64,000 bases of DNA from Firmicutes bacterium CAG:321_26_22 (GTDB taxonomy: Bacteria; Bacillota_I; Bacilli_A; RF39; UBA660), in the NCBI GenBank assembly GCA_001916775.1, contig MNTB01000030.1, forward strand, positions 33,962 through 97,961, given 5' to 3'. A program made the translations under genes and the position numbers. The notes under the pieces are model-generated. The model did no database searches. It was given only the letters and a program-made list of their open reading frames with translations, and was not told where the DNA came from. Numbering within the stretch: the first letter of the stretch is position 1; the number at the start of each line of letters is the position of its first letter. Shown piece by piece: positions 1 through 12,303 of the stretch.

Positions 1-715
1 TTGGTCTATATTTTCTAAATTCTTCTTCAGCTTGTTCACCTAAGTTTTTAGTATCAACTAAGAAAAGAATTCTTTTTGCTTTTGCATATTTTAACAATCT
101 ATATACGGAAGTTATAGCAGTAAATGTTTTACCAGCACCTGTTGCCATTTGAATTAAGGCTCTAGGCTTATTTTCAGAGAATGATTTTTCCAAATTAACA
201 ATAGCATTAACTTGGCAATCTCTAAATCCTTTAGCATCAAGTTCTGGAAATTGCTTCATTCTATTTCTTAAAGTGTCATTATCTTTTAATAATTGTTCTA
301 ATTCTTCTGGTGTATGAAACATAAATATTTCTCTTGATCTTGCTTTTTCATCCTTATAGTCACAAAATCTAATTATAATATTTGTACATTCATAGGCAAA
401 TCTTATTTCAGGTTGTTCTTTTAATCCTCTTAATCCACTCTTAATATATCTTAGTGATTGTTCCGCTACAACACCTAGCGTAGTTCCTCTTTCTTCTTTT
501 TTAGCTTCAATAACACCAACAGGTTTACCTGCTATAAATATTAAATAATCTACAGGTCCACTATTGGTTTGTGCCTCTCTTAAAATAACACCTAAAGAAG
601 CTGTAGGATTAAACGAATCAACATTTTGAATTACAAAACCTGCTTCTCTTAATTTTTTATCAATATCTATTCTTGCTTTGGCTTCGGGATTTAAATTTAA
701 ATCTTCTAATTCCAT
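1..715 (-). CDS. hsdR: Type I restriction enzyme R subunit (HsdR), N-terminal fragment; gene continues beyond window start
   Basis: Manual minus-strand translation from the ATG at 715 gives MELEDLNLNPEAKARIDIDKKLREAGF... (HsdR N-terminal domain), then a Walker A helicase motif (LIQMATGAGKTFTAI). The reading frame stays open to position 1. Confidence 0.75.
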   Translation of the reverse strand, partial: MELEDLNLNPEAKARIDIDKKLREAGFVIQNVDSFNPTASLGVILREAQTNSGPVDYLIFIAGKPVGVIEAKKEERGTTLGVVAEQSLRYIKSGLRGLKEQPEIRFAYECTNIIIRFCDYKDEKARSREIFMFHTPEELEQLLKDNDTLRNRMKQFPELDAKGFRDCQVNAIVNLEKSFSENKPRALIQMATGAGKTFTAITSVYRLLKYAKAKRILFLVDTKNLGEQAEEEFRKYRP

Positions 716-886
716 ACTACTACCTCTTACTTCCCATTTCATCTCACATATTCAATAATAATTATAACATATAATTTGACATTTGACAAATAGATTTTCT
801 CGGCATAAAATCGTATTTGCGACAATTATTATAACTATTCAAAAGTTGCACTTGACTTTTTAATTAATAAGAAAGTTGGTAAAATA

Positions 887-1995
887 ATGGCAGTTTATAA
901 AGAGCCTAAGCCTACTAAAAATGGTAGAGATTGGTATTTTAAGTTTAGCTATAAAGATGAATTTGGTGCTACTAAGCAGTATAGATCTAAAAGATATTTA
1001 ACTAAAAAGGAAGCATCTGATGCGGAGAGAATGTTTTTAGTTACTTCTACTGATAAAGTTGAAGATAATAATATGACCTCTAAGGATTTATATGATGAAT
1101 TTAGAATGCATAACGATGAAATAATGAAAGATGCTACTAAGTATGGTTATGATAATAAAGAAAAATTTATAGAATGCTTCTATACTGTTAAATTGAAAGA
1201 TTTTAATATCATGCAGTTTGAACAATGGAAACGAGAAATAAATAAACTTAATATATCTCTTAGATATAAAAATGATATTTATAAATTTCTTAAATCTATT
1301 TTAAACTTTGGTGTTAAATGGCATAATTTAAACTTTCAAGCAGTATATAATAAAATGACAAAGTCCCAAGATCCTAATGAACGTAAAAAAAAATGTCTTA
1401 TTATACTTATGATGAGTTTAAAAAGCTTATTTCTTATGAAGAAGACTTAAGATGGAAATGTGTATTTGAAATATTATATTACTGTGGATTACGTAAAGGT
1501 GAATTAAAAGGACTTACTTGGAAAGATATTTATTTTGATAAAAAAGTTTTATCTGTTAATAAACAAATAACCCAGAGAAATAACCGTGTTAAGTTTGAAT
1601 TTTCAGATACTAAGGCAAGAGATAGTAGAAGAATAGTTCCTATTACTAAAGTCTTGCTAAATGACCTTAAAATGCTCTATGAACAGGATAAAAAAGATTA
1701 CTATGGATTTAACGACAATTTCTTTGTCGTTTCTGATTCTAAACCTATAGCTGATTCTAATATATATCTTAGAAGAACTAAATTAGCTACTCTTGCTGGT
1801 TTAAAAGTTATTAGGATCCATGATTTTAGACATTCATGCACATCATTACTTATTAATAATGGTGCTAATGTTACATTAGTTGCAAAATATTTAGGACATA
1901 CAAAAATCGAGGAAACACTAAATACATATTCACATATGTTTAGTACTGCCCTCGACTCTGTTGTTTCTGTTATAGATAGCTTGGAAGATAACTAA
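887..1995 (+). CDS. Tyrosine recombinase / phage-type integrase, split into two ORFs (887-1450, 1393-1995) by a frameshift inside an A9 tract (1385-1393); pseudogene or slippage-prone
   Basis: ORF1 is an N-terminal SAM-like domain. ORF2 carries the catalytic box (HDFRHSCTSLLINNGANVTLVAKYLGHTKIEETLNTYSH). Adding one A (A10) fuses the frames as ...NERKKKMSYYTYDEF... Confidence 0.7.
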
Positions 1996-1996
1996 G

Positions 1997-2887
1997 CTAT
2001 TTTTCTTTTATCATTTTATTAACTAATAATCCCACATTAGTTCCTAACCCATTTTTAATCTTTGTAATATCTTCTGCTAAATCTTTTTCTCTTCTGATTG
2101 CATTTTTTATTCCAGGTTCAAACTCTTTAAAATTTAAAGAGTTTTTTCTATAGCCACATGCATCATGCAATCTCTTTTCAATATATCTTCTTCCAGAGTT
2201 ATTCATTTTTTTATTTATTATCAAATCTTCTTTGTTTTCAGAATCAAATTCATCAAAATGCATATATAACCATAATTCAAAGCTTGGATTACTAACATAC
2301 AAATTAACATTATTCTTCTTGCAGAATTCAACTACTTTATCATATTGTTCTTCTGTAAAACTATCTTTATCTCTATCGACTACCATATTAAGTGAATCAA
2401 CATCAGACGAATAAGTAACATCCTGCGCCTCAAAATACTTTTCAAAGTTTTTAGCCATATCTTCGTATGCCTCATTTTTAAATAGATACATAAATACTGA
2501 ATCTAAATCTTTATACGGTATTCTATAATTATCACCTTTATACATTTCATCTAATTTTGTAAAAGCACTATCTAAATCAATTTTACCAGGATTTTCATGA
2601 TCCCAATTTGATAATTTGTTTTTCAATTCTCCTACTGTTACTTCATTAGCAGAATTATCAATAAATGTTTGCAGTAATTTAATGACATGTGTTGGATTAC
2701 TGTGTCCTTGATTTGCATAATCTCTCAAAATATTAATAACAGTTACATTTTCTTTTATTAGTGATTCATTCAGTTTTTCAAAATATTTTGGTTCAGTTGC
2801 AGAACCTTCGGAAGCTATAAAATACTTTTTTCTATAATCACTAATTTCAGATTCTCTTTCTGTAGCAAATGGTTCTTTAATCCTCAT
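1997..2887 (-). CDS. RloB-like (Toprim-like) protein, AbiLii-like partner of the upstream ATPase
   Basis: N-terminus MRIKEPFATERESEISDYRKKYFIASEGSATEPKYF is typical of the RloB family. The gene is translationally coupled (11-nt overlap) to the AAA_21 ATPase gene. Confidence 0.55.
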   Translation of the reverse strand: MRIKEPFATERESEISDYRKKYFIASEGSATEPKYFEKLNESLIKENVTVINILRDYANQGHSNPTHVIKLLQTFIDNSANEVTVGELKNKLSNWDHENPGKIDLDSAFTKLDEMYKGDNYRIPYKDLDSVFMYLFKNEAYEDMAKNFEKYFEAQDVTYSSDVDSLNMVVDRDKDSFTEEQYDKVVEFCKKNNVNLYVSNPSFELWLYMHFDEFDSENKEDLIINKKMNNSGRRYIEKRLHDACGYRKNSLNFKEFEPGIKNAIRREKDLAEDITKIKNGLGTNVGLLVNKMIKEK

Positions 2888-4193
2888 AATTAGTATCTAT
2901 GTTGGCTATAGCACCAAATCTACCTTCCAAATATGCTTTATCAATTTTTCTATCAAATCTTGCTACATCTTTGAATTCTTCTAGAGAGAATATTCTTGTG
3001 TTTCCTTCTTCTGATTTTTCTGCAAACCATATTTCATCACGTCTAACTAAGTCAAAATCTAAAGTCTTTAATTCATGCGTAGTTATTATCAATTGGTTAG
3101 TATTATTTGACTCTAAAAATAATTTTAGTAATCCCTCAACAAGCAATGGATGTAAGCTGCTATCTAATTCATCTATTAAATAAACTTTATTATCAGTTAA
3201 TAGTATATCAAGTAATTCTAATACTCTAATTGTACCATCTGATTCTTCATATGCTCCAAAAGAATATTCACTATTATTGTGCATGAATTTTAAACTTTTT
3301 ACTTCAAATTTATTATTTTCATCTTTCTTAACAAGATATAAATCATTTTCAATTCTCAATGTACAACTATTTATTTTTGCCTTTTTAGAAATCATTTCGA
3401 AGTCATTAATAAAATTAGCAAAATCAACATCTGACATTCTTGATCTAATGCTATTAATATCATAATCATCAGCTTTAATATTATTAATATTTATATCCAT
3501 TTTATTTAAATACTTAATTATTTTATCTTTTTTATCAACATAATCTAATGGTAATAATTTATGTGATGCAGGTCTAATAATTATCATTTCATTCGCTAAA
3601 AAATTAAATACATTTATAATATCTTTAAAGAAAATATCATTATTTTTTGACATTATTAATCTTCTTGACATTTCAAGTAAAAATAAATCTGAATTATTAT
3701 TTTTCATTTCCTTTAAACAAGTATTAAAATATTCATTTTTTTCTTTTATATCTGATCCAATTGTCTTTTTCTTTAAATCTCTTTCAAAAATAATTTTTTC
3801 TGTAGGTTTAGTCATATCAATCAACCATTCAGAAACTAACTCATTTCTTGAAAAATTTAACTCAAATCCATATGAATATAATTTTTTGTCTATTTCTATC
3901 TCATATTCAAAGTATGAATCCTTATTTGGATCACCATTTTTTCCTCTATAAAATTGATTATTTATTAAAGTTCTTATTCCACCATTAAAAATACCTTTAA
4001 TAATACTTATAGCAATTATTAAATTAGACTTTCCTGAACCATTAGCTCCAAACAATCCAGAAAATTTTAGAATCTTTTTATTATTTGTTTCAATAATATG
4101 ATTCTCATTATTTCTAACCTTCCCTGCCAACATTGAAAAATGTTGTAATTCATCAAAAGATCTAAAATTCTTAACTTTAAATCCCATTAGCAT
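2877..4193 (-). CDS. AAA_21-type ABC-like ATPase (AbiLi / RloA-like)
   Basis: Walker A GANGSGKSNLIIAI, Walker B LIDELDSSLHP, and an ITTHE motif. It forms an operon with the RloB-like gene. Confidence 0.65.
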   Translation of the reverse strand: MLMGFKVKNFRSFDELQHFSMLAGKVRNNENHIIETNNKKILKFSGLFGANGSGKSNLIIAISIIKGIFNGGIRTLINNQFYRGKNGDPNKDSYFEYEIEIDKKLYSYGFELNFSRNELVSEWLIDMTKPTEKIIFERDLKKKTIGSDIKEKNEYFNTCLKEMKNNNSDLFLLEMSRRLIMSKNNDIFFKDIINVFNFLANEMIIIRPASHKLLPLDYVDKKDKIIKYLNKMDININNIKADDYDINSIRSRMSDVDFANFINDFEMISKKAKINSCTLRIENDLYLVKKDENNKFEVKSLKFMHNNSEYSFGAYEESDGTIRVLELLDILLTDNKVYLIDELDSSLHPLLVEGLLKLFLESNNTNQLIITTHELKTLDFDLVRRDEIWFAEKSEEGNTRIFSLEEFKDVARFDRKIDKAYLEGRFGAIANIDTNYED

Positions 4194-4516
4194 ATTAACA
4201 ATCCTCCTATTCTTAATATAATTATATTACAATTTTTCTCATTTGTGAAGGTTATTATACATCTTTTTTATAAAAAATCAATACTTTTATGTGATTTTTC
4301 CACATTTAATGCTGTTTTTTTAATTATGTTGTGATATAATTGTTATGAGGAAATAAAAAGAAGTTCTGCAAAACTTCTCCTCAATGTGTAAGATAATACA
4401 TCTCGCAAACTAATTTTGGATTAACATCCTATTATTAGTATATCACACTTTTGTGATCTTAAAACATTTTCTTTTAATAGGATTGTAAATTCATTTTAAA
4501 GAAAGGAAGTGTTATT

Positions 4517-4732
4517 ATGGCAACAGTTAAGGCTATACATCAAACAAGTACAGGCAAAAACGATTTGTTCATTAACACTGGGAATCATCACAAAATGACA
4601 CTTAATCAATTTGTAAAAAGAATTGAAAGTGACAGCTCTGTTTATAGTGATAGATATTACATTAAACATGATAGCAGTGGTAAAACTCCAGTATCAAAAC
4701 CAAACGGCAATAAAAAAGACAATCTCGAATAA
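4517..4732 (+). CDS. hypothetical small protein (71 aa)
   Basis: Shine-Dalgarno GGAAG sits 8 nt upstream of the start. A clean rho-independent terminator follows at 4757-4781. Confidence 0.45.
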   Translation: MATVKAIHQTSTGKNDLFINTGNHHKMTLNQFVKRIESDSSVYSDRYYIKHDSSGKTPVSKPNGNKKDNLE

Positions 4733-4756
4733 CTGTGGTTTATTATCTTACACAAG

Positions 4757-4781
4757 CACTAGCTTTGGCTAGTGTTTTTTA
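4757..4781 (+). terminator. rho-independent terminator (cactagc-tttg-gctagtg followed by T6)
   Basis: 7-bp GC-containing stem followed by a T-run, directly after the stop of the 71-aa ORF. Confidence 0.6.
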
Positions 4782-4963
4782 ATTATAGATAATTCTTTGT
4801 AATCTTCTTCATTACCAACTCTTTTTAAATAATCTATACCGCCATCAACTGCTACTGCTCCACATGAACATCTTTTATAATCATTAGTACTTTTTGATTC
4901 TATAATATCTCCACATTTTTTACATTTAATTTTATTTCTAATTATTTCTTCTTTCTTTTTCAT
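4769..4963 (-). CDS. small zinc-ribbon protein (CxxC...CxC), 64 aa
   Basis: The motif CKKCGDII-x15-CSCGAVAVDGG has four Cys. AAGGAG-like RBS is present upstream. Confidence 0.5.
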   Translation of the reverse strand: MKKKEEIIRNKIKCKKCGDIIESKSTNDYKRCSCGAVAVDGGIDYLKRVGNEEDYKELSIIKKH

Positions 4964-5218
4964 AAGTCATCTCCTCATAATGTATTATACCATGATCTTA
5001 TAACAATTATATCCTACCGTTTGCGGTATAATACCACTGCAACCATACGGATAAAATCTATATTGTCCATATCACTGTAAAAAAATCCATTGAGAATTTT
5101 TGCCACTTTCGGCACTTTTTCTCAATGAACTATTTTAAAACTCAATTTTTTTGTACCTAAATTGTACCTAAAATTATTTCAGCAAAACTGATGCCTTGCA
5201 ACCCCTTATAAAATGGGC

Positions 5219-5249
5219 ATAAAAAATGAGAGCACGGTTAAATGCTCTC
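5219..5249 (-). terminator. rho-independent terminator (gagagca-loop-tgctctc, then U-run on minus strand)
   Basis: The hairpin overlaps the stop codon of the Mrr-like ORF and is followed by TTTTTT on the minus strand. Confidence 0.6.
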
Positions 5250-5525
5250 TTCAGGGGGGCAACTTAGTTCTAATTCTTTTTTTAAAATAGACTTTAGATC
5301 CGAAAATTTCTTAATATGTTTGCACTGGCAAATTATGCCATTTTCTTTATTTCTTAAATCAATTCCACCATCCTTACCCATTTTAAAACTTTTAAACTCC
5401 AAATTTAACTTTTTTGAAATAATATCCTTTGACAATTTTTCAAACTCCAACGGACTTAGTACATCTAAATTGTATTTCATACATATAACACTTCCTTTAC
5501 TACCAAAAAACCTGTAAATTAACAA
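5238..5525 (-). CDS. mini Mrr-type restriction-endonuclease-fold protein (Mrr_cat N-terminal core; possibly truncated)
   Basis: LSPLEFEKLSKDII...GKDGGIDL...ICQCKHIKK matches the Mrr_cat catalytic core (D-GGID ... QxK). The likely start is the internal Met (MKYNLDV). It is the last gene of a three-gene operon and is followed by a terminator. Confidence 0.5.
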   Translation of the reverse strand: MLIYRFFGSKGSVICMKYNLDVLSPLEFEKLSKDIISKKLNLEFKSFKMGKDGGIDLRNKENGIICQCKHIKKFSDLKSILKKELELSCPPEESI

Positions 5526-5557
5526 AACTATAATATAATTCTATTCTGTCATTCACT

Positions 5558-6343
5558 TTATCTCTCCAAGCTTTCTAATTCATCTAATTCATACTTAATA
5601 TTTTTATTAAACTTAATTTTGGAAACATTATATATAGCTGCTAATGGATATCTTACTTTAGGAAATGACTTAAATATTTTAAATGGTGTTATCCATATTA
5701 AATAATCTATATTTGAATCTTTTAATATATTTAACATGTTACTATCCTTCCACCAACAATGTAGGTCTCCTGTCATTAGTTCGCCCGGCCCTTTAGGAAC
5801 TTCGCAATCTATAAGTTTAATATATGGTGTTGATTCATCAAAAACAAAAAACATTGTCTTAAATCCTGGATGATTATTTTTATATTTTTCTATTTTTTGT
5901 ATATGTTTTTCTATTACCCTTTTAAAATTATCAACATAAAGTTTATAGTTATGATCATTATGTCCTTCAAGTCCACAATAAGGATTTATGAACAAATTAC
6001 CAGCTTCTGCTATTTCCTTAATGGTTTTATTTTTATCTATTAATTGTTTTGTTATTTGACTTTCTTGCTCATTATGTCGATTAATTACTCTACCATTTTT
6101 ATCAACAAATGTATGATCATCAATTCTCATTACATCCATCATTAATTTAAATTTATTATTATAAAAGTCCGGCGGTAAAGCATTTTTAGAAGAGGCATCA
6201 GTCCATGTTTTCCATAACAATTTATTATGTATTAATCTATATAATAGTATATTATTAAAATTTAATGGAAATATTTTTATCCTCCTTCTTTTTAAGTCTT
6301 GAAAAGTTTGTATTATTCTTTCTTCTTTATCATACCTATTCAT
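5558..6343 (-). CDS. hypothetical protein (261 aa), middle gene of the TM-protein / unknown / mini-Mrr operon
   Basis: Long ORF lying 16 nt downstream of 6359-7132 on the same strand. No recognisable motif. Confidence 0.55.
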   Translation of the reverse strand: MNRYDKEERIIQTFQDLKRRRIKIFPLNFNNILLYRLIHNKLLWKTWTDASSKNALPPDFYNNKFKLMMDVMRIDDHTFVDKNGRVINRHNEQESQITKQLIDKNKTIKEIAEAGNLFINPYCGLEGHNDHNYKLYVDNFKRVIEKHIQKIEKYKNNHPGFKTMFFVFDESTPYIKLIDCEVPKGPGELMTGDLHCWWKDSNMLNILKDSNIDYLIWITPFKIFKSFPKVRYPLAAIYNVSKIKFNKNIKYELDELESLER

Positions 6344-6358
6344 TTATACCACCCCTAA

Positions 6359-7132
6359 TTATGCAGAAAAGCACTGATATTTTTTTCTTGTCTCTAGCTT
6401 TAGAGATTCAAAAAATTTATATGGCTTAAATTTAATATTATTGTAAATTTTTATATCTTGCCACTGTTCAATATATTGTGTGATATCCTCATTTATTACA
6501 TCAAATATTTTAAAAAAACTTTCTGTTTCTTTATTTATTTTCAACTCTTCCTCTGCGCAATAAAATTCAAATTTAAAATCTTTTATAATAAAATTAAGAT
6601 CATTATTATACAAATCATGAATTTCAAGTATATTTCTTTGTGACATTATATAATTGATATGTTCATTAATATATTTTATATTGTTACTTAATATATTTTT
6701 TAAAAAGTCTAATAGTTCGGGCTTTTTATTTTCACCGTAGTCAGCAAAGATTTCTTTTGTTATTTCATACCATTCTTTCCATTTGAATTCTTTATTGCGA
6801 TAGTCTTTTTTTCTTCCTGCTACTGAGCAAAATTCTGACCAACCTTCTATATATTTCATAATACTAAATTGTAAATCACTATAAACTAACATATAAATAT
6901 CATTATGTTTTTCATTTTTTTCCTTAACATTTCCAAATTCAATAATTAAGGCTACTATTGTTGATGCAAAACAACCTAACCCTATATTTAAAATTATATC
7001 TGCTAATATTTTGTCTTTTGCTTCCTGTAAGTAAATCCCCCATACCATAAGCATTATGGACATAAACAGCAAGCTTAAATATAAATGCCAATTTAGTTTG
7101 TATGGTTTATTTATTTTATTATTCATTTTCAA
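6359..7132 (-). CDS. hypothetical membrane protein (2 N-terminal TM helices, 257 aa)
   Basis: Hydrophobic segments LYLSLLFMSIMLMVWGIYL and LGCFASTIVALIIEF, followed by a soluble domain. Confidence 0.55.
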   Translation of the reverse strand: MKMNNKINKPYKLNWHLYLSLLFMSIMLMVWGIYLQEAKDKILADIILNIGLGCFASTIVALIIEFGNVKEKNEKHNDIYMLVYSDLQFSIMKYIEGWSEFCSVAGRKKDYRNKEFKWKEWYEITKEIFADYGENKKPELLDFLKNILSNNIKYINEHINYIMSQRNILEIHDLYNNDLNFIIKDFKFEFYCAEEELKINKETESFFKIFDVINEDITQYIEQWQDIKIYNNIKFKPYKFFESLKLETRKKYQCFSA

Positions 7133-7144
7133 CTTCTCCTACTT

Positions 7145-7206
7145 CTAGTTAATACAAAAAGACGCAGTACAAAAAATCTATTAAATAGACCTGTACTAGC
7201 GTCTTT
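7145..7206 (-). terminator. long-stem rho-independent terminator downstream of the acidic micro-protein gene
   Basis: aaagacgcagtac...gtactagcgtcttt nested stem, followed by a U-run on the minus strand. Confidence 0.55.
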
Positions 7207-7267
7207 CTTTAACTAAATTAAGTATATCAAATTATTTTTATTTATTCAATATATTTTGACAAATTTC

Positions 7268-7450
7268 TTATTCATCATCATCTTCTGAATAATAGTCATC
7301 ATCTTCTAGTTCTTCCTCTTCAAAGTTAAATGTATCATACTTCTTTTCTTTTACTAATTCTTTTTGCCAATCTTCTAAATAATTATTATCTTTTTTATTA
7401 TCATCTTCTGTATCTGCAAATGCTTTTATTAAGTTCCATATTAAACACAT
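7268..7450 (-). CDS. highly acidic small protein (60 aa, C-terminal EEEELEDDDYYSEDDDE)
   Basis: ORF with its own terminator. Extreme Asp/Glu content. Confidence 0.45.
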   Translation of the reverse strand: MCLIWNLIKAFADTEDDNKKDNNYLEDWQKELVKEKKYDTFNFEEEELEDDDYYSEDDDE

Positions 7451-7726
7451 AATCTCACCACCTGAAATTATTATATCATAGTTTTTCGTTATGTATGACT
7501 ATATGCTTATTTTTCTACTCTTATTTATATAATTACTTCTTTATACTAAAATAATATTAGTATATATCTACTGCTTATATATAATAAGTATCTTGGATAC
7601 TTTTAATTAAGATAAGTTTACTTAGCTTAATTAAACACTAATAAGACTTACATAGTAAGGCTTATAGTGAATATAATAAAGATAATATATAGGTATATTA
7701 AAACTAAGACTTGATATCTTAGTTTA

Positions 7727-8530
7727 TTATTTAGTCAATGTTAATGTTTTTACTTTGAATTCTTTAGTATCATAACCCCATGGATTAGATACTAATCTTG
7801 TATTATTTATTATTATGTCTTCTTCTTTATGATCATGACCATATATCCATACTGGTGATTTATATTCTTTTACTTCTGTATAATAACAAGAGTTATTACC
7901 CCTACTATTACTTTTATTTCTAAATGGTGGTACATGAGTTATTATTAAATCTATATTATTTGGTAAGTTATTATACCAAGATATGCTATCATTATGTAAT
8001 TTTAATATTTTATCTTTCTTAGATAATTCTGATAAGATAAATCTTGAATCATTCTGCATAGGATAGTTATATAGTTTATCTACTAATGTTACTGGTTTAT
8101 ACCAAAGGGTATCTCCCGCTAATAAGAAGGTATTATAGGTATATAGTCCTTTAGTATTATTTGTTTTATCTAGTATGATTATATCGTTATTATCTTTAAA
8201 TATTTCATTTAATCTATATACTTTATTCATACTATTATAGTTATATTCTTTAGCCATAGGATTAGTATAGATATATTTTATTACTGGTATATAGTATTCA
8301 TGATTACCTAGGACGAATATTATTTTTTTATAGTATTTTGAACATGAATATAATAGTTCACTCACTCTATTTATATCTTCATCGATATCTCCCGCTACTA
8401 CAAGGATATCTCCTTTTACTTGCATACTTATTTTATCTTGGACTAATTTATCTATTTTAGTTATGCTTTCTTTTTTACTTATGTAGTGAGTTAAGTGTAA
8501 ATCAGATACGTAGTCAATGTTTAATTCCAT
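7727..8530 (-). CDS. calcineurin-like metallophosphoesterase
   Basis: Motifs DLHLTH, GDIDED, GNHEYY and GHDH. Confidence 0.75.
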   Translation of the reverse strand: MELNIDYVSDLHLTHYISKKESITKIDKLVQDKISMQVKGDILVVAGDIDEDINRVSELLYSCSKYYKKIIFVLGNHEYYIPVIKYIYTNPMAKEYNYNSMNKVYRLNEIFKDNNDIIILDKTNNTKGLYTYNTFLLAGDTLWYKPVTLVDKLYNYPMQNDSRFILSELSKKDKILKLHNDSISWYNNLPNNIDLIITHVPPFRNKSNSRGNNSCYYTEVKEYKSPVWIYGHDHKEEDIIINNTRLVSNPWGYDTKEFKVKTLTLTK

Positions 8531-8633
8531 GGTATTTTTCCTTTCTAGATGCTTATATTATATAGAAAGATGCAAATTATGTCAAATAAAAAACTATTGA
8601 CACTTTTGCCTGTCAACAGTTTCTGTGGATAAG

Positions 8634-8744
8634 TTATTTATTATTACATTTACTTATAAACTCTTCTTCATGTTCTTTTATTTCTTTAATAATAGTTTCT
8701 TCAAGAGTTAAATATTTAAATTTTAATTTTGGTATGTTATTCAT
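8634..8744 (-). CDS. small ORF (36 aa, MNNIPKLKFKYLTLEETIIKEIKEHEEEFISKCNNK) with a perfect AGGAGG RBS
   Basis: Found by manual translation. SD aggagg lies 7 nt upstream of the ATG. The ORF is too short to appear in the ORF track. Confidence 0.35.
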   Translation of the reverse strand: MNNIPKLKFKYLTLEETIIKEIKEHEEEFISKCNNK

Positions 8745-8765
8745 ATTTCCTCCTATTTAATTATA

Positions 8766-10409
8766 TCATATTTTGTTTATTTTCTCACGATAATCATCAT
8801 AATTACCAATATATTTAGTGATGTTTTTATTTTTTATTTCGATTATACTAGTGGCTATTTTATTTATGAAATATCTATCATGAGATACAAATAATATAGT
8901 ACCAGTAAACTCCCTTAGTGACTCTTCAAGCATTTCTCTTGTATCAATATCAATGTGATTAGTTGGTTCATCTAGAATTAAGAAGTTATATGAATTTTGG
9001 ATTAGACAGAATATTTTTAATCTTACTTTTTCTCCTCCGGATAAATATTTTATTTTTTTATGAATGTTTTCTCCTGCAAAGAGGTATTTGAATAAGGCAC
9101 TTCTTAAATATTGTTCTGGTCCAATGAAATATTTTCTGGCTTCTTCTAGTACTGATAAATTAATATCTTCAAACTCTATCTCTTGAGGAATATAACCTAT
9201 CTTGATATTACTTCCTAGTTTTATACTATTATTTCCTTTTAATATTTCTTTGATTAAGGTTGATTTACCGACTCCATTATCTCCGACTAGACATAGTCTA
9301 TCTTGATATTTAATACTTAGATTAAGATTATTAAATATTTCTTTAGTACCATAAGATAGATTTAGATTATTTATTGTTAATACATCTTTTCCTGATCTAC
9401 TAGCGGTATCAAAAGTTATATTTAGTTTTTTCTTGTCTTCTGGTTTATCTAACTTTTCTAGTTTTTCTAATCTTTTTTCGATACTAGCGGCTCTTCTAAA
9501 AAATATTTCTCCACCACTTGGTCCACAAAGCTTACCATACTCTTTTAATCTTTTGATACTATTTTCCATAGCGGTTATTTGTTTTTGTTGGTCTTTATAG
9601 TTTTTTAATTCTAGTAATAGTCTATTTTCACTTTCTTTAATATAGTAACTATAATTACCATGATATACTTCTATTCCTCTTTTGGTTAATAAATATACTT
9701 TGTTTATGACATTATCCATGAAATAGCGGTCATGGGATACTAGTATTATTGTACCTTTATAGTTCTTTAATGTTTTTTCTAACCAAATCATTTTATTTAT
9801 ATCTAAATGGTTAGTTGGTTCATCTAATAATAAGACATCTGGTTCTTGTAATAATAATCTTATTAGAGATATGATGGTTTTTTCTCCTCCAGATAAGGTA
9901 TTGAAATTTCTATTTAATATTTCTTCAGTTATATTAAATACTGGTAGTATTTTTTGAATCTTTGTTTCGTATTCATATCCTCCTAGTGAGATAAACTTCT
10001 CTTGCAGATTCATATACTTTGTTATTACTTTATAATCCTCAGTTAAGAGTTTATCTTCATATCTTTCTAATTTTTCTTTTAGTTCTATTATTTCTTTAAA
10101 GGCACTATTTATATAGTCTTTTACTATTATATCTTTTTCTTCAGGTATTTGACTTAAATAGCCTATACTTATATTATTTCTTATTGAAAGGGAACCGGAA
10201 TCTATACTTTCTTGGCCTGCGATTATTTTTAGTATAGTACTCTTTCCACTTCCATTTGTTCCAATTAAGCCTACTTTTTCTCCTTTTTGTACTGTTATAT
10301 CTATATTATTTAATACTAAGTCAAAACCAAATGACTTACATACTTTACTTATATTTATATCTATCATAATATTCCTCCCATCAAAAAAAGTTATATGAAT
10401 ATATTGCAT
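8766..10409 (-). CDS. ABC-F family ATPase (two ABC domains, no TM); probable true start at 10367 (MIDINISK, RBS GGGAGG)
   Basis: Two sets of Walker A, signature and Walker B motifs (GTNGSGKST / LSGGEK / LLLDEPTNHLD and GDNGVGKSTL / LSGGEKVRL / LILDEPTNHID) joined by a charged linker. Confidence 0.85.
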   Translation of the reverse strand: MQYIHITFFDGRNIMIDINISKVCKSFGFDLVLNNIDITVQKGEKVGLIGTNGSGKSTILKIIAGQESIDSGSLSIRNNISIGYLSQIPEEKDIIVKDYINSAFKEIIELKEKLERYEDKLLTEDYKVITKYMNLQEKFISLGGYEYETKIQKILPVFNITEEILNRNFNTLSGGEKTIISLIRLLLQEPDVLLLDEPTNHLDINKMIWLEKTLKNYKGTIILVSHDRYFMDNVINKVYLLTKRGIEVYHGNYSYYIKESENRLLLELKNYKDQQKQITAMENSIKRLKEYGKLCGPSGGEIFFRRAASIEKRLEKLEKLDKPEDKKKLNITFDTASRSGKDVLTINNLNLSYGTKEIFNNLNLSIKYQDRLCLVGDNGVGKSTLIKEILKGNNSIKLGSNIKIGYIPQEIEFEDINLSVLEEARKYFIGPEQYLRSALFKYLFAGENIHKKIKYLSGGEKVRLKIFCLIQNSYNFLILDEPTNHIDIDTREMLEESLREFTGTILFVSHDRYFINKIATSIIEIKNKNITKYIGNYDDYREKINKI

Positions 10410-10804
10410 CCATATAACTTCTATTTATATATATAGATGCAGGCACGACAAAAACTCACACCCACATCTCATTTTTTTTACTTTTATTTTTGATGAGATA
10501 AAGGTGTGATATTTATAGTAAACATGATTACATTACCTACATATTTATACATAAATATCCCTCCACTTATAATATATTATAGTTTTTTATTTTTGTCAAT
10601 TGTTTTTACACTGCAAGCCATTTGTCTTGCTAGTGTTATTTGGAGTCTTTGGTCTCCAAATAAGTATTAATTATACTTATTATATATAAGTATGAAATAT
10701 ATACTTAAAGTAGTTTATTATTGGTATTTTTTTTGTTATTTTGAGTATAATAATAGTGCAATATACTTGACTTTTTATGATAGTTATAGTATCATTGTAT
10801 TACC

Positions 10805-10917
10805 GGAGAGAAATCTCGTCAGGTCGATAGCTCAATGTCGATTTTATTAAATTAAGTGTATGTTAAGTACACCGCTTGAGTTGGGGAGAGACTACTAGAT
10901 AGTCTCTTTTCTTTTTA
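10805..10917 (+). ncRNA. candidate ~110-nt small RNA (promoter TTGACT-17-TATCAT at 10769-10797, terminator at 10888-10917)
   Basis: Promoter-like hexamers and a terminator bracket a non-coding stretch. Convergent with the DUF3800 gene. Confidence 0.3.
10888..10917 (+). terminator. plus-strand rho-independent terminator (agagact-actagat-agtctct + TTTCTTTTT)
   Basis: Hairpin followed by a T-run on the plus strand. No plus-strand CDS ends here. Confidence 0.55.
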
Positions 10918-11703
10918 TGGGAATAATAGTTTATGATCGATAATATCAATATCAGAATCAATATTTGATAATGCTCTTCCTCTAGTAGTACCTGCTATTA
11001 AATCTGCTGCTTGCACTAAGTAACTCTTACCTGAATCTTGATATGTTAATCTTATTTCTAATTTTCCATATAATATATTTTTGTATATTATGTCATAATT
11101 AAAATTAGATATTCCATGTAGTAATTCTTCTGTTAGACCATCTTTTAAATTATAATAACCATTACTTTTTGTAGATTGTTCATCTATATTTATTATTAAT
11201 CTCACATTTTTATGTGGGTCTATTTTTTTATCTTTTATTAATTCTTCAATGGTACTTTTAATTAGTCTTCTTATTGTGTAATCTATGTATCTTCCTTTTG
11301 AGGCTTTATTATTTATAATATGATTATATACTTTTGTATTATTTATTACTAGGGCAATAGTATAATATTTACTTATGTAGTTCATAATCCTTCTTTTATG
11401 ACCTTTCTTGATATTTGTATTTTTTATTTCTTTACATTTTTTAGTACATTCTCCTTTTGTTTGGTCACAGTAAGAACATTTTATTTCATTTATTATTTGG
11501 CGATACTGCGTTATAAATTTATCTTTTTCTTGTTTTGATAAAAAGACTATTCCTGCATATACTGATACTTTTTCTTTTTTTGTTAATTTACCTGAATCAT
11601 CTAAATTTATATATATTTCTTGATATTCTTCTTTTTTATTCATGTAAGCGCTCCCTTCAATTGTTTTAATGTTTATTATAGCACTTACTTTTACTCTTGT
11701 CAT
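10915..11703 (-). CDS. DUF3800-family protein (likely start at the internal Met, MNKKEEYQEIYINLDDSG)
   Basis: N-terminal INLDDSG motif and C-terminal LVQAADLIAG motif, both hallmarks of DUF3800. Confidence 0.55.
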   Translation of the reverse strand: MTRVKVSAIINIKTIEGSAYMNKKEEYQEIYINLDDSGKLTKKEKVSVYAGIVFLSKQEKDKFITQYRQIINEIKCSYCDQTKGECTKKCKEIKNTNIKKGHKRRIMNYISKYYTIALVINNTKVYNHIINNKASKGRYIDYTIRRLIKSTIEELIKDKKIDPHKNVRLIINIDEQSTKSNGYYNLKDGLTEELLHGISNFNYDIIYKNILYGKLEIRLTYQDSGKSYLVQAADLIAGTTRGRALSNIDSDIDIIDHKLLFP

Positions 11704-11789
11704 TAGTTTTTAAGTAATTTTGTTTATCAACAATATATGTGGATATAAGAAAAACTATAGACATTAATCTATAGCTTATATAAATACTT

Positions 11790-11877
11790 TTATTTCAGAG
11801 ACATTTGGCCCAGTAAATTTTTTTGAAAGACTTTTGGCTTTCAAAAACCTCGAACAATGTAATGTGAGAGGGATATA
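11790..11877 (+). repeat. intergenic double-hairpin repeat, copy A (core CGAACAATGTAATGTGAGAGG)
   Basis: Shares the hairpin-T-run-hairpin-core architecture with copies at 17160, 21431, 43073, 48870 and 51867. Confidence 0.7.
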
Positions 11878-12303
11878 TTACCTTCTACTTTTTCCTTTAG
11901 AAGATAATAGTTCTTCTCTTAAACATCTATAATATTCAATACAATTAACATATCTATTTTCTTTTTCATTAAATATCCATATAGCAGTTAAATCTTCTAA
12001 CGAGATAGCTCCCATTTGACCATCTTGTACTTTGGTATAAGGTGCTTCTAGTACTGGTCTTTTATCGTAGTAAAATAGTTTATCTCCACCTCTAGTCCAA
12101 AATAATTCATTATTATGACCACCTTTTACTTTATCTTTACTTCTTGCATATCCACTAGTTATAATATCTTCTACTTGATCCATACCGGTTACTCTATATA
12201 CAAAATTATCATTTGTCTTCATAGCAATAGGACTATCTTTCCCAAAAGCTAATTCTCGGACAAATACTCTATTTCTAGTAGTTTCTATTCTATCGTCTTC
12301 CAT
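11878..12303 (-). CDS. hypothetical protein (141 aa), last gene of the Ca-ATPase operon
   Basis: ORF lying 3 nt downstream of 12306-12680. Confidence 0.5.
   Translation of the reverse strand: MEDDRIETTRNRVFVRELAFGKDSPIAMKTNDNFVYRVTGMDQVEDIITSGYARSKDKVKGGHNNELFWTRGGDKLFYYDKRPVLEAPYTKVQDGQMGAISLEDLTAIWIFNEKENRYVNCIEYYRCLREELLSSKGKSRR

Follow-up and report, generated by a model that had tools for sequence, protein, structure and literature searches.

An AbiL-family gene pair as swappable cargo of a phage-like integrative element in a gut Firmicute

In this work we analysed a pair of adjacent genes lying within a stretch of 64,000 nucleotides (nt) from Firmicutes bacterium CAG:321_26_22 (contig MNTB01000030.1, positions 33,962 to 97,961; hereafter the window, whose numbering is used for all coordinates unless another locus is named; loci compared with the window carry L numbers). 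Very probably, the pair belongs to the AbiL family, and it was found as swappable cargo of an integrative phage-like element, in the slot that separates the element end from the integrase. As judged from their genes, sister elements house other defence or toxin-antitoxin systems in the same slot. The two genes are co-oriented on the minus strand, with abiLi first and abiLii second, and are laid out as follows.

4249 to 4221, minus strand: likely operon promoter, TTCACA-17-TATAAT, a consensus match only, in AT-rich DNA where promoter-like sites show no enrichment over shuffled sequence
4208 to 4203, minus strand: likely operon ribosome-binding site, AGGAGG, a consensus match only
2877 to 4193, minus strand: abiLi-like gene, 438 amino acids (aa), ABC-type (AAA_21, Rad50/SMC-like) ATPase, from the open reading frame (ORF) call, Pfam and PADLOC
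2877 to 2887, minus strand: 11-nt overlap, ATGAGGATTAA, in which abiLi ends and abiLii begins, read from the sequence
1997 to 2887, minus strand: abiLii-like gene, 296 aa, RloB protein and Toprim-like predicted nuclease, from the ORF call, Pfam and PADLOC

An earlier note on this DNA had described an AbiL-like module in which an ATPase gene with the motifs GANGSGKS (Walker A) and DELD overlaps a gene for an RloB-like protein by 11 nt. The overlap is present, and the two motifs were located at residues 49-56 and 341-344. In the hidden Markov model (HMM) searches that the note had proposed as its check, both expected domains scored well above their cut-offs: the 438-aa protein matched Pfam AAA_21 with 107.3 bits (cut-off 27), and the 296-aa protein matched RloB (PF13707) over model positions 1-195 with 96.7 bits (cut-off 31.5). 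The top PADLOC profiles were AbiLi for the former (3.4e-73, 244.5 bits) and AbiLii for the latter (6.6e-18), and the Pfam and PADLOC scores of the pair are far beyond chance. The second-best PADLOC profile for AbiLi was AriA (1.7e-30, score 105, residues 212-376). Together with the fold search described below and the literature (PMC11464382, PMC13064643), these results bear out the AbiL-like assignment as well as the kinship with PARIS and Gabija that the note had proposed. The module is an ordinary AbiL system, of the type that standard annotation tools already call. Its tie to the lactococcal AbiL prototype proteins appears to run through the profile HMMs: a tblastn search of PLSDB with AbiLii gave one Fusobacterium match and no lactococcal one, and none of the PLSDB matches to AbiLi reached 37% identity. 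A 'Firmicutes bacterium CAG:321' metagenome-assembled genome has an annotated protein identical to AbiLi, and an uncultured Holdemanella has one with 95% identity.

Both genes seem to be intact and maintained. Pairwise ratios of nonsynonymous to synonymous substitution (dN/dS) against seven homologous loci were 0.07-0.25 for AbiLi and 0.08-0.30 for AbiLii, and because of these low values (0.07-0.30 overall) we consider both genes to be under purifying selection. AbiLi carries Walker A (G49-S56), Q80, a signature-like S318-x-G320-T321, Walker B (L339-D344) and an H-loop histidine, H373. In 17 homologues with 64-95% identity, the Walker A residues of G49-ANGSGKS56, Q80, E317-S318-x-G320-T321, the Walker B stretch L339-x-D341-E-L-D344 and T371-T-H373-E were invariant. 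The motifs of AbiLii are E27-G28...E32, D171-R-D173, S199-N-P-x-F-E204 and H210, all of them, and P33 besides, invariant in 34 homologues (51-90% identity). Even in plasmid RloB proteins from Fusobacterium and Persicobacter with 23-40% identity, residues E27, E32, D171, D173, P201, E204, W206 and H210 were kept. Since no strong Shine-Dalgarno sequence precedes the abiLii start at the overlap, the layout suggests that translation of AbiLi and AbiLii is coupled.

AbiLii has the beta-alpha core of a Toprim domain with the conserved E and DxD, and its closest structural neighbours in the fold search were the DNA-cutting OLD nucleases and GajA. This gives moderate support to a predicted Toprim/OLD-like class for AbiLii and agrees with what a 2026 review reports on lactococcal AbiLii (PMC13064643). 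No solved RloB structure could be detected by sequence in the PDB, where searches with the AbiLi sequence and the AbiLii profile returned just P-loop matches to SMC1 and chance matches to troponin. A helical insert of about 75 aa between Toprim strands 2 and 3 makes AbiLii about 75 aa longer than the plasmid RloB proteins (212-219 aa). We had considered this insert as a novelty and dropped the idea: an exhaustive RloB search gave 1,235 representative clusters, and RloB proteins of 300-325 aa that align over their full length are common, many of the best 150 being of this size with end-to-end alignment. The most variable stretches of the two proteins are residues 241-300 of AbiLi and residues 101-140, in the insert, of AbiLii, and the most conserved are the catalytic cores; because of their variability, the two stretches are candidate recognition surfaces.

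The divergence of the two partners was discordant at some loci. In L007-L009, AbiLii is 81-83% and AbiLi 63-66% identical to the window proteins, and in L024 AbiLi is 80% and AbiLii 64% identical. Such discordance suggests either within-family swapping of partners by recombination or unequal evolutionary rates.

The pair lies in a conserved block with the following parts.

869 to 5258: conserved block of 4,390 bp, comprising the integrase, AbiLii, AbiLi, two small ORFs and the element end
887 to 1995, plus strand: tyrosine integrase (Arm-DNA-bind_4 and Phage_integrase, Pfam), convergent with abiLii
4517 to 4732, plus strand: DUF3892-like ORF of 71 aa (weak similarity, Pfam), divergent from abiLi
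4769 to 4963, minus strand: zinc-ribbon-like DUF7695 protein of 64 aa (Pfam, 1.1e-28), followed by a terminator-like hairpin
5218 to 5258, minus strand: element end, terminator-like, CCCCCTGAAG plus hairpin GAGAGCAtttaaccgTGCTCTC plus a run of T

With identical endpoints, this block recurs in L002, L011, L019 and L035 at 96-98% nucleotide identity. Past the two small ORFs it ends in about 300 nt that close with the terminator-like hairpin, and homology to every other copy stops exactly at 5258. The block is frequent in human-gut assemblies, and since many gut metagenomes contain it at 93-100% identity, it is ecologically widespread and recently mobile. Beyond the integrase, L002, L011 and L019 have no hsdR and carry instead genes for a CI-like S24 repressor, a Cro-like helix-turn-helix (HTH) protein, a phage replication-organiser protein and an HNH protein. 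From this repressor and replication module, the carrier is best described as a phage-like integrative element, with AbiL in the classic cargo position, flanked by integrase and element end. A reading of 869-5258 as a self-contained mini-element was dropped: L002 and L011 share DNA past the integrase, namely the repressor/replication module. The boundary at 869 is specific to the genome lineage of the window, with the true element end only at 5258, and the same lineage has lost or replaced the repressor/replication module. When the surroundings of 869 and 5258 were searched for direct repeats (att), just AT-rich chance matches came up, and no consistent target duplication was seen at the block junctions. 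Megablast of window positions 1-12000 against plasmids and phages gave no match.

The integrase reading frame of the window is split in two by a run of nine A residues (1385-1393). An intact integrase of 369 aa has A10 at this run (L010, L015, L017, L018); A9 is also found in L014 and A11 in L012, and in L013 the run is broken by a G and the frameshift is at another place. This variation is due either to errors in assembling the homopolymer or to on/off switching of the integrase by strand slippage. Because the integrase is frameshifted and the repressor/replication module is missing, the element appears to be immobilised in this genome.

That the AbiL pair is exchangeable follows from loci sharing the element end. 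The 41-nt end sequence was found at 39 metagenome loci, whose upstream flanks are of about 21 unrelated kinds, and the slot of 2.2-3.4 kb between this end and a related integrase (50-97% identity) holds different cargo among loci. The identities given below come from Pfam and PADLOC scans of the sister-element proteins, except where an assignment was made by eye.

Window, L035 and L065: AbiL
L032 and L057: AbiEi/AbiEii and a 362-aa protein
L043: Fic and PDC-M11A
L051: Fic and a 578-aa protein
L050: Fic, DUF4145 and DUF4238
L030: a 587-aa DUF4209 protein and a 158-aa protein
L041 and L066: a 255-aa protein and a PDC-M36A-like 479-aa protein
L059: a 208-aa protein and a near-identical 479-aa protein (its likeness to the L041/L066 protein is not profile-based)
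L055: a 253-aa and a 405-aa protein
L061: a HigB-like protein (by eye) and a PD-Lambda-2_B-like HTH/ImmA protein

The cargo proteins of 362, 578, 255 and 405 aa had no match in Pfam and/or PADLOC and are candidate new defence genes.

Neither small ORF of the block belongs to the core system, which by these comparisons consists of abiLi and abiLii alone. The DUF3892-like ORF is kept in block copies of 93-99% identity and is missing from an AbiL copy with 81% identity (L065) and from distant pairs. DUF7695 accompanies the element end even with cargo other than AbiL and was never found beside distant AbiL pairs. The two ORFs (4517-4963) are therefore accessory to the block, and might be element regulators. 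The distant pairs, with 56-64% AbiLii identity (among L020-L027), lie at unrelated chromosomal sites, keep the two genes and the same 11-nt overlap, and have no integrase, no DUF7695 and, within 6 kb, no hsd genes; their neighbours are SpoIID/M23 and SpoIIID/MreB genes on either side, or an adjacent LemA gene.

The unrelated flanks at the element end led to a lead, short of a finding, on the target of these elements. In 19 of the 39 loci with the end sequence, the upstream flank consists of a promoter (TTGACA-17-TATAAT-like), two hairpins and a C-rich, single-stranded UUCAACCAAAACCCCCUGAA, after which comes the element-borne terminator. The full candidates, about 95 nt long, are located as follows.

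L001, 5571 to 5671: small RNA candidate
L011, 6875 to 6976: small RNA candidate
L032, 3184 to 3289: small RNA candidate
L061, 1614 to 1721: small RNA candidate
15 further loci: small RNA candidates

Single-sequence folds were used since the hairpin sequences are too divergent to align; for the same reason, RNAalifold, run on a MAFFT alignment, found the structure only in part. In these folds all 19 candidates take a three-hairpin shape despite entirely different stem sequences, the hairpin changes between loci being fully compensated. Several diverged species have the candidate gene downstream of recG; in another species it follows murD, and in a third an acetyltransferase gene. Rfam gave no match, either at the gathering threshold or at E<=10. 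The window has the 3' end only (5218-5258), and no 5' part of the candidate was found in it. Because this layout is what one would see if an integrase acted on the 3' part of a small RNA gene and that part were then replaced from the element, 5218-5258 may be the element-borne replacement 3' end of an undescribed small RNA gene of about 95 nt. Phage-like elements of gut Bacilli would insert there and use the slot of 2-3.5 kb as a defence hotspot, AbiL being one of at least eight cargos; we give this reading somewhat less than an even chance.

As to what the pair does, the locus is probably a functional two-gene anti-phage module of the AbiL family, with AbiLi as the sensor and AbiLii as the Toprim nuclease effector. 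Lactococcal AbiL causes abortive infection and acts after phage transcription (PMC13064643), and AbiL was found through a phage-resistance phenotype (Deng 1999, as cited in PMC13064643). In a tree of AAA15/21 plus TOPRIM systems, AbiL groups with PARIS, Gabija and MADS3-4 (PMC11464382). For the mechanism, the analogy is drawn with PARIS (AriA/AriB) and with the validated pairs of an AAA antitoxin and a TOPRIM_OLD toxin (PMC10440598). In PARIS, an AriA hexamer retains AriB until a phage protein triggers its release, whereupon AriB cleaves tRNA-Lys (PMC11464382). From this analogy we infer that AbiLi is sensor and scaffold, and AbiLii a released or activated Toprim nuclease. In the uninfected cell, AbiLi oligomers would bind AbiLii and hold it inactive. 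A phage product or phage-induced change would be sensed by AbiLi, possibly via its variable middle region, and ATP binding or hydrolysis would then release or activate AbiLii. The metal-dependent Toprim site of AbiLii (E27, D171, D173) would cleave nucleic acid, which could be RNA (host tRNA or another RNA) if the system works like PARIS, or DNA if it works like OLD and Gabija, so that phage production would halt and the infected cell would be lost by abortive infection. For this sequence of steps we consider the chances even or slightly better.

Several points weigh against this proposal. No AbiL has a demonstrated mechanism, AbiLii has no sequence similarity to AriB, and the published models of the two superimpose poorly (PMC13064643). 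AbiLii of Fusobacterium nucleatum is toxic in E. coli (PMC3985639), but AbiLi of the same species supplied in trans failed to neutralise it, and AbiLii of Lactococcus lactis is non-toxic in E. coli (Dy et al. 2014, PMC3985639); because of these two results, a simple sequestration model is unproven. The AlphaFold2 (AF2) model of our AbiLi is weak in the ATPase core (predicted local distance difference test, pLDDT, 66) and was used for class-level matches only. The Foldseek matches of this low-confidence model were all Rad50/SMC/RecF/JetC heads, and the AriA structure 8V49 matched it with an E value of 0.11 only. In addition, no relative was found by megablast and by tblastn with AbiLii against sequenced phages, nor by an AbiLii scan of IMG/VR, and therefore the carrier cannot be called a sequenced phage.

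The toxicity of F. nucleatum AbiLii (PMC3985639) would also be expected if the pair were a toxin-antitoxin addiction module, in which AbiLii as toxin and AbiLi as antitoxin stabilise a mobile element or island with no dedicated phage sensing. We regard this as unlikely, although it is the alternative that fares best. AAA-antitoxin/TOPRIM_OLD-toxin pairs do act as toxin-antitoxin systems (PMC10440598), the slot also holds toxin-antitoxin-like cargo (AbiE, HigB-like/HTH pairs), and the block persists in strains with a frameshifted integrase. However, AbiL was discovered by its phage-resistance phenotype, as the review citing Deng 1999 has it (PMC13064643), AbiLi in trans was no antidote to AbiLii (PMC3985639), and the same pair is stable where it lies amid housekeeping genes and there is no mobile element that it could stabilise. 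Addiction and phage defence are not mutually exclusive roles.

Still less probable is a targeting of DNA in the manner of Gabija or OLD, whereby the complex, controlled by ATP, would itself nick or degrade the DNA of the phage, and neither toxin release nor abortive infection would take place. The OLD nucleases and GajA that came out as best structural neighbours of AbiLii cut DNA, and the ATPase is Rad50/SMC-like, a DNA-clamping class. The abortive phenotype of lactococcal AbiL and its action after phage transcription (PMC13064643) speak against it, as do the published trees that place the ATPase with the AAA15/21 sensors of PARIS (PMC11464382) and the lack of a GajB-like helicase partner gene at the locus.

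The pair also has restriction genes nearby, at the left edge of the window.

2 to 715, minus strand: 5' part of a type I restriction hsdR gene, 238 codons, cut by the window edge
716 to 868, minus strand: promoter and ribosome-binding site, hsdR's own signals

The earlier note had taken this hsdR for a fragment. It is no true fragment, as it is the window edge that cuts the gene: contigs 99% identical to the window have a complete hsdR (918 aa) within an hsdR-hsdM-hsdS operon (L010, L012-L018). The note had further placed the pair beside hsdR and an integrase. Adjacency as such holds, with the qualifications that the integrase adjoining the pair is frameshifted and that hsdR lies past it, the start of the complete hsdRMS operon being 1.3 kb from the pair. 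The argument that the two genes are restriction-linked did not stand up, as the pair is outside the hsd operon, is separated from it by the integrase gene and is encoded on the strand opposite to the integrase, and copies of the block occur in other places where this hsd locus is absent. L011 has another type I hsdM/hsdS about 4 kb away from its copy of the block, and the HsdM encoded there shares 26% identity with that of the window lineage. Because the block occurs without this hsd locus and the distant pairs lack hsd genes, we interpret the adjacency as clustering in a defence island with no functional tie, an arrangement that would differ from that of rloAB within hsd in Campylobacter. It is very unlikely that the pair serves the adjacent type I system as a functional accessory, triggered for instance by inhibition of restriction: the short distances to hsd genes in the window lineage and in L011 and the triggering of PARIS by the anti-restriction protein Ocr (PMC11464382) would fit it, but the pair is outside the operon behind an oppositely encoded integrase, the block adjoins unrelated DNA with exact boundaries, pairs at 56-64% AbiLii identity do without hsd within 6 kb, and two HsdM proteins only 26% identical are no co-inherited partner.

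Compared with AbiL of L. lactis pND861, the gene order is the same, with the AAA_21-type ABC ATPase gene first and the RloB/Toprim-like gene second; both systems are on mobile DNA, and AbiL is the best PADLOC match for both proteins. The carrier is a plasmid there and a chromosomal integrative element of a gut Firmicute here, and the likeness is at profile level only. RloA/RloB of Campylobacter jejuni share the two domain families and a nearby type I restriction-modification locus, but lie between hsd genes, whereas our pair lies outside, on the far side of an integrase, and is mobile independently of the hsd genes. PARIS (AriA ABC ATPase plus AriB DUF4435 Toprim), the source of the proposed mechanism, has the same split into ATPase and Toprim proteins, a secondary AriA match on AbiLi, and a place in defence hotspots of integrative, phage-like elements. 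In contrast, the effector here is RloB (PF13707) and not DUF4435, no DUF4435 or AriB match being found for AbiLii in Pfam and PADLOC, and the structural match to AriA is marginal. In Gabija GajA and P2 Old (class 1/2 OLD nucleases) the domains are fused, whereas here they are in two proteins, and Gabija needs the helicase GajB, whereas no helicase gene adjoins our pair. Defence hotspots of P2/P4-like and other integrative elements were reportedly described by Rousset and colleagues in 2022, a study cited in PMC13064643 and PMC11464382. Those hotspots share with ours a fixed slot by the integrase and the att end that takes alternative defence systems. They differ in that we deal with another element family, in uncultured gut hosts that are Bacilli/Erysipelotrichales-like, and with an apparent target that is a small RNA gene candidate and not a tRNA.

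By itself, the module is of little novelty, being one more AbiL among the thousands already called by defence-annotation tools. It is an intact and well-conserved example from an uncultured human-gut Firmicute lineage. As no AbiL has a demonstrated mechanism, any tractable member would be useful, in particular for asking if RloB effectors, too, fit the PARIS model, in which a Toprim nuclease is set free by a sensor ATPase. Modestly greater interest attaches to the hotspot and the small RNA lead, and this context is of more general use: new defence genes could be sought in the fixed slot with interchangeable cargo, as several cargos have no Pfam or PADLOC match, and the candidate small RNA target may be a new class of integration site.

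To the right of the block lie further genes on the minus strand.

5259 to 5525, minus strand: N-terminal remnant of an Mrr_cat nuclease gene, about 90 codons, matching positions 1-74 of the 752-position PADLOC profile PDC-S73
5558 to 7132, minus strand: a 261-aa ORF and a 257-aa ORF, side by side
7727 to 12303, minus strand: strain-variable region with a metallophosphoesterase (PADLOC PDC-S10-like), an ABC-F ribosomal-protection-like ATPase (547 aa) and a 262-aa protein

The Mrr_cat remnant is cut exactly at the element end, and the remainder of the gene is absent from the other side of the block. The 261-aa and 257-aa ORFs had no match in Pfam, NCBIfam, PADLOC and PHROGs. They are kept as a pair in strains of the same species, with the 257-aa gene missing in L013 and L016. 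They lie in a strain-variable island, possibly as an uncharacterised defence pair. Judged by eye, the N-terminal part of the 257-aa protein includes a hydrophobic stretch, and the protein is possibly membrane-associated. The L014 counterpart of the 262-aa protein is recorded as DUF3800, and in other strains (region equivalent in L010/L013) a protein with an MqsA/SocA-Panacea antitoxin domain or a Bro-N protein replaces some of the genes.

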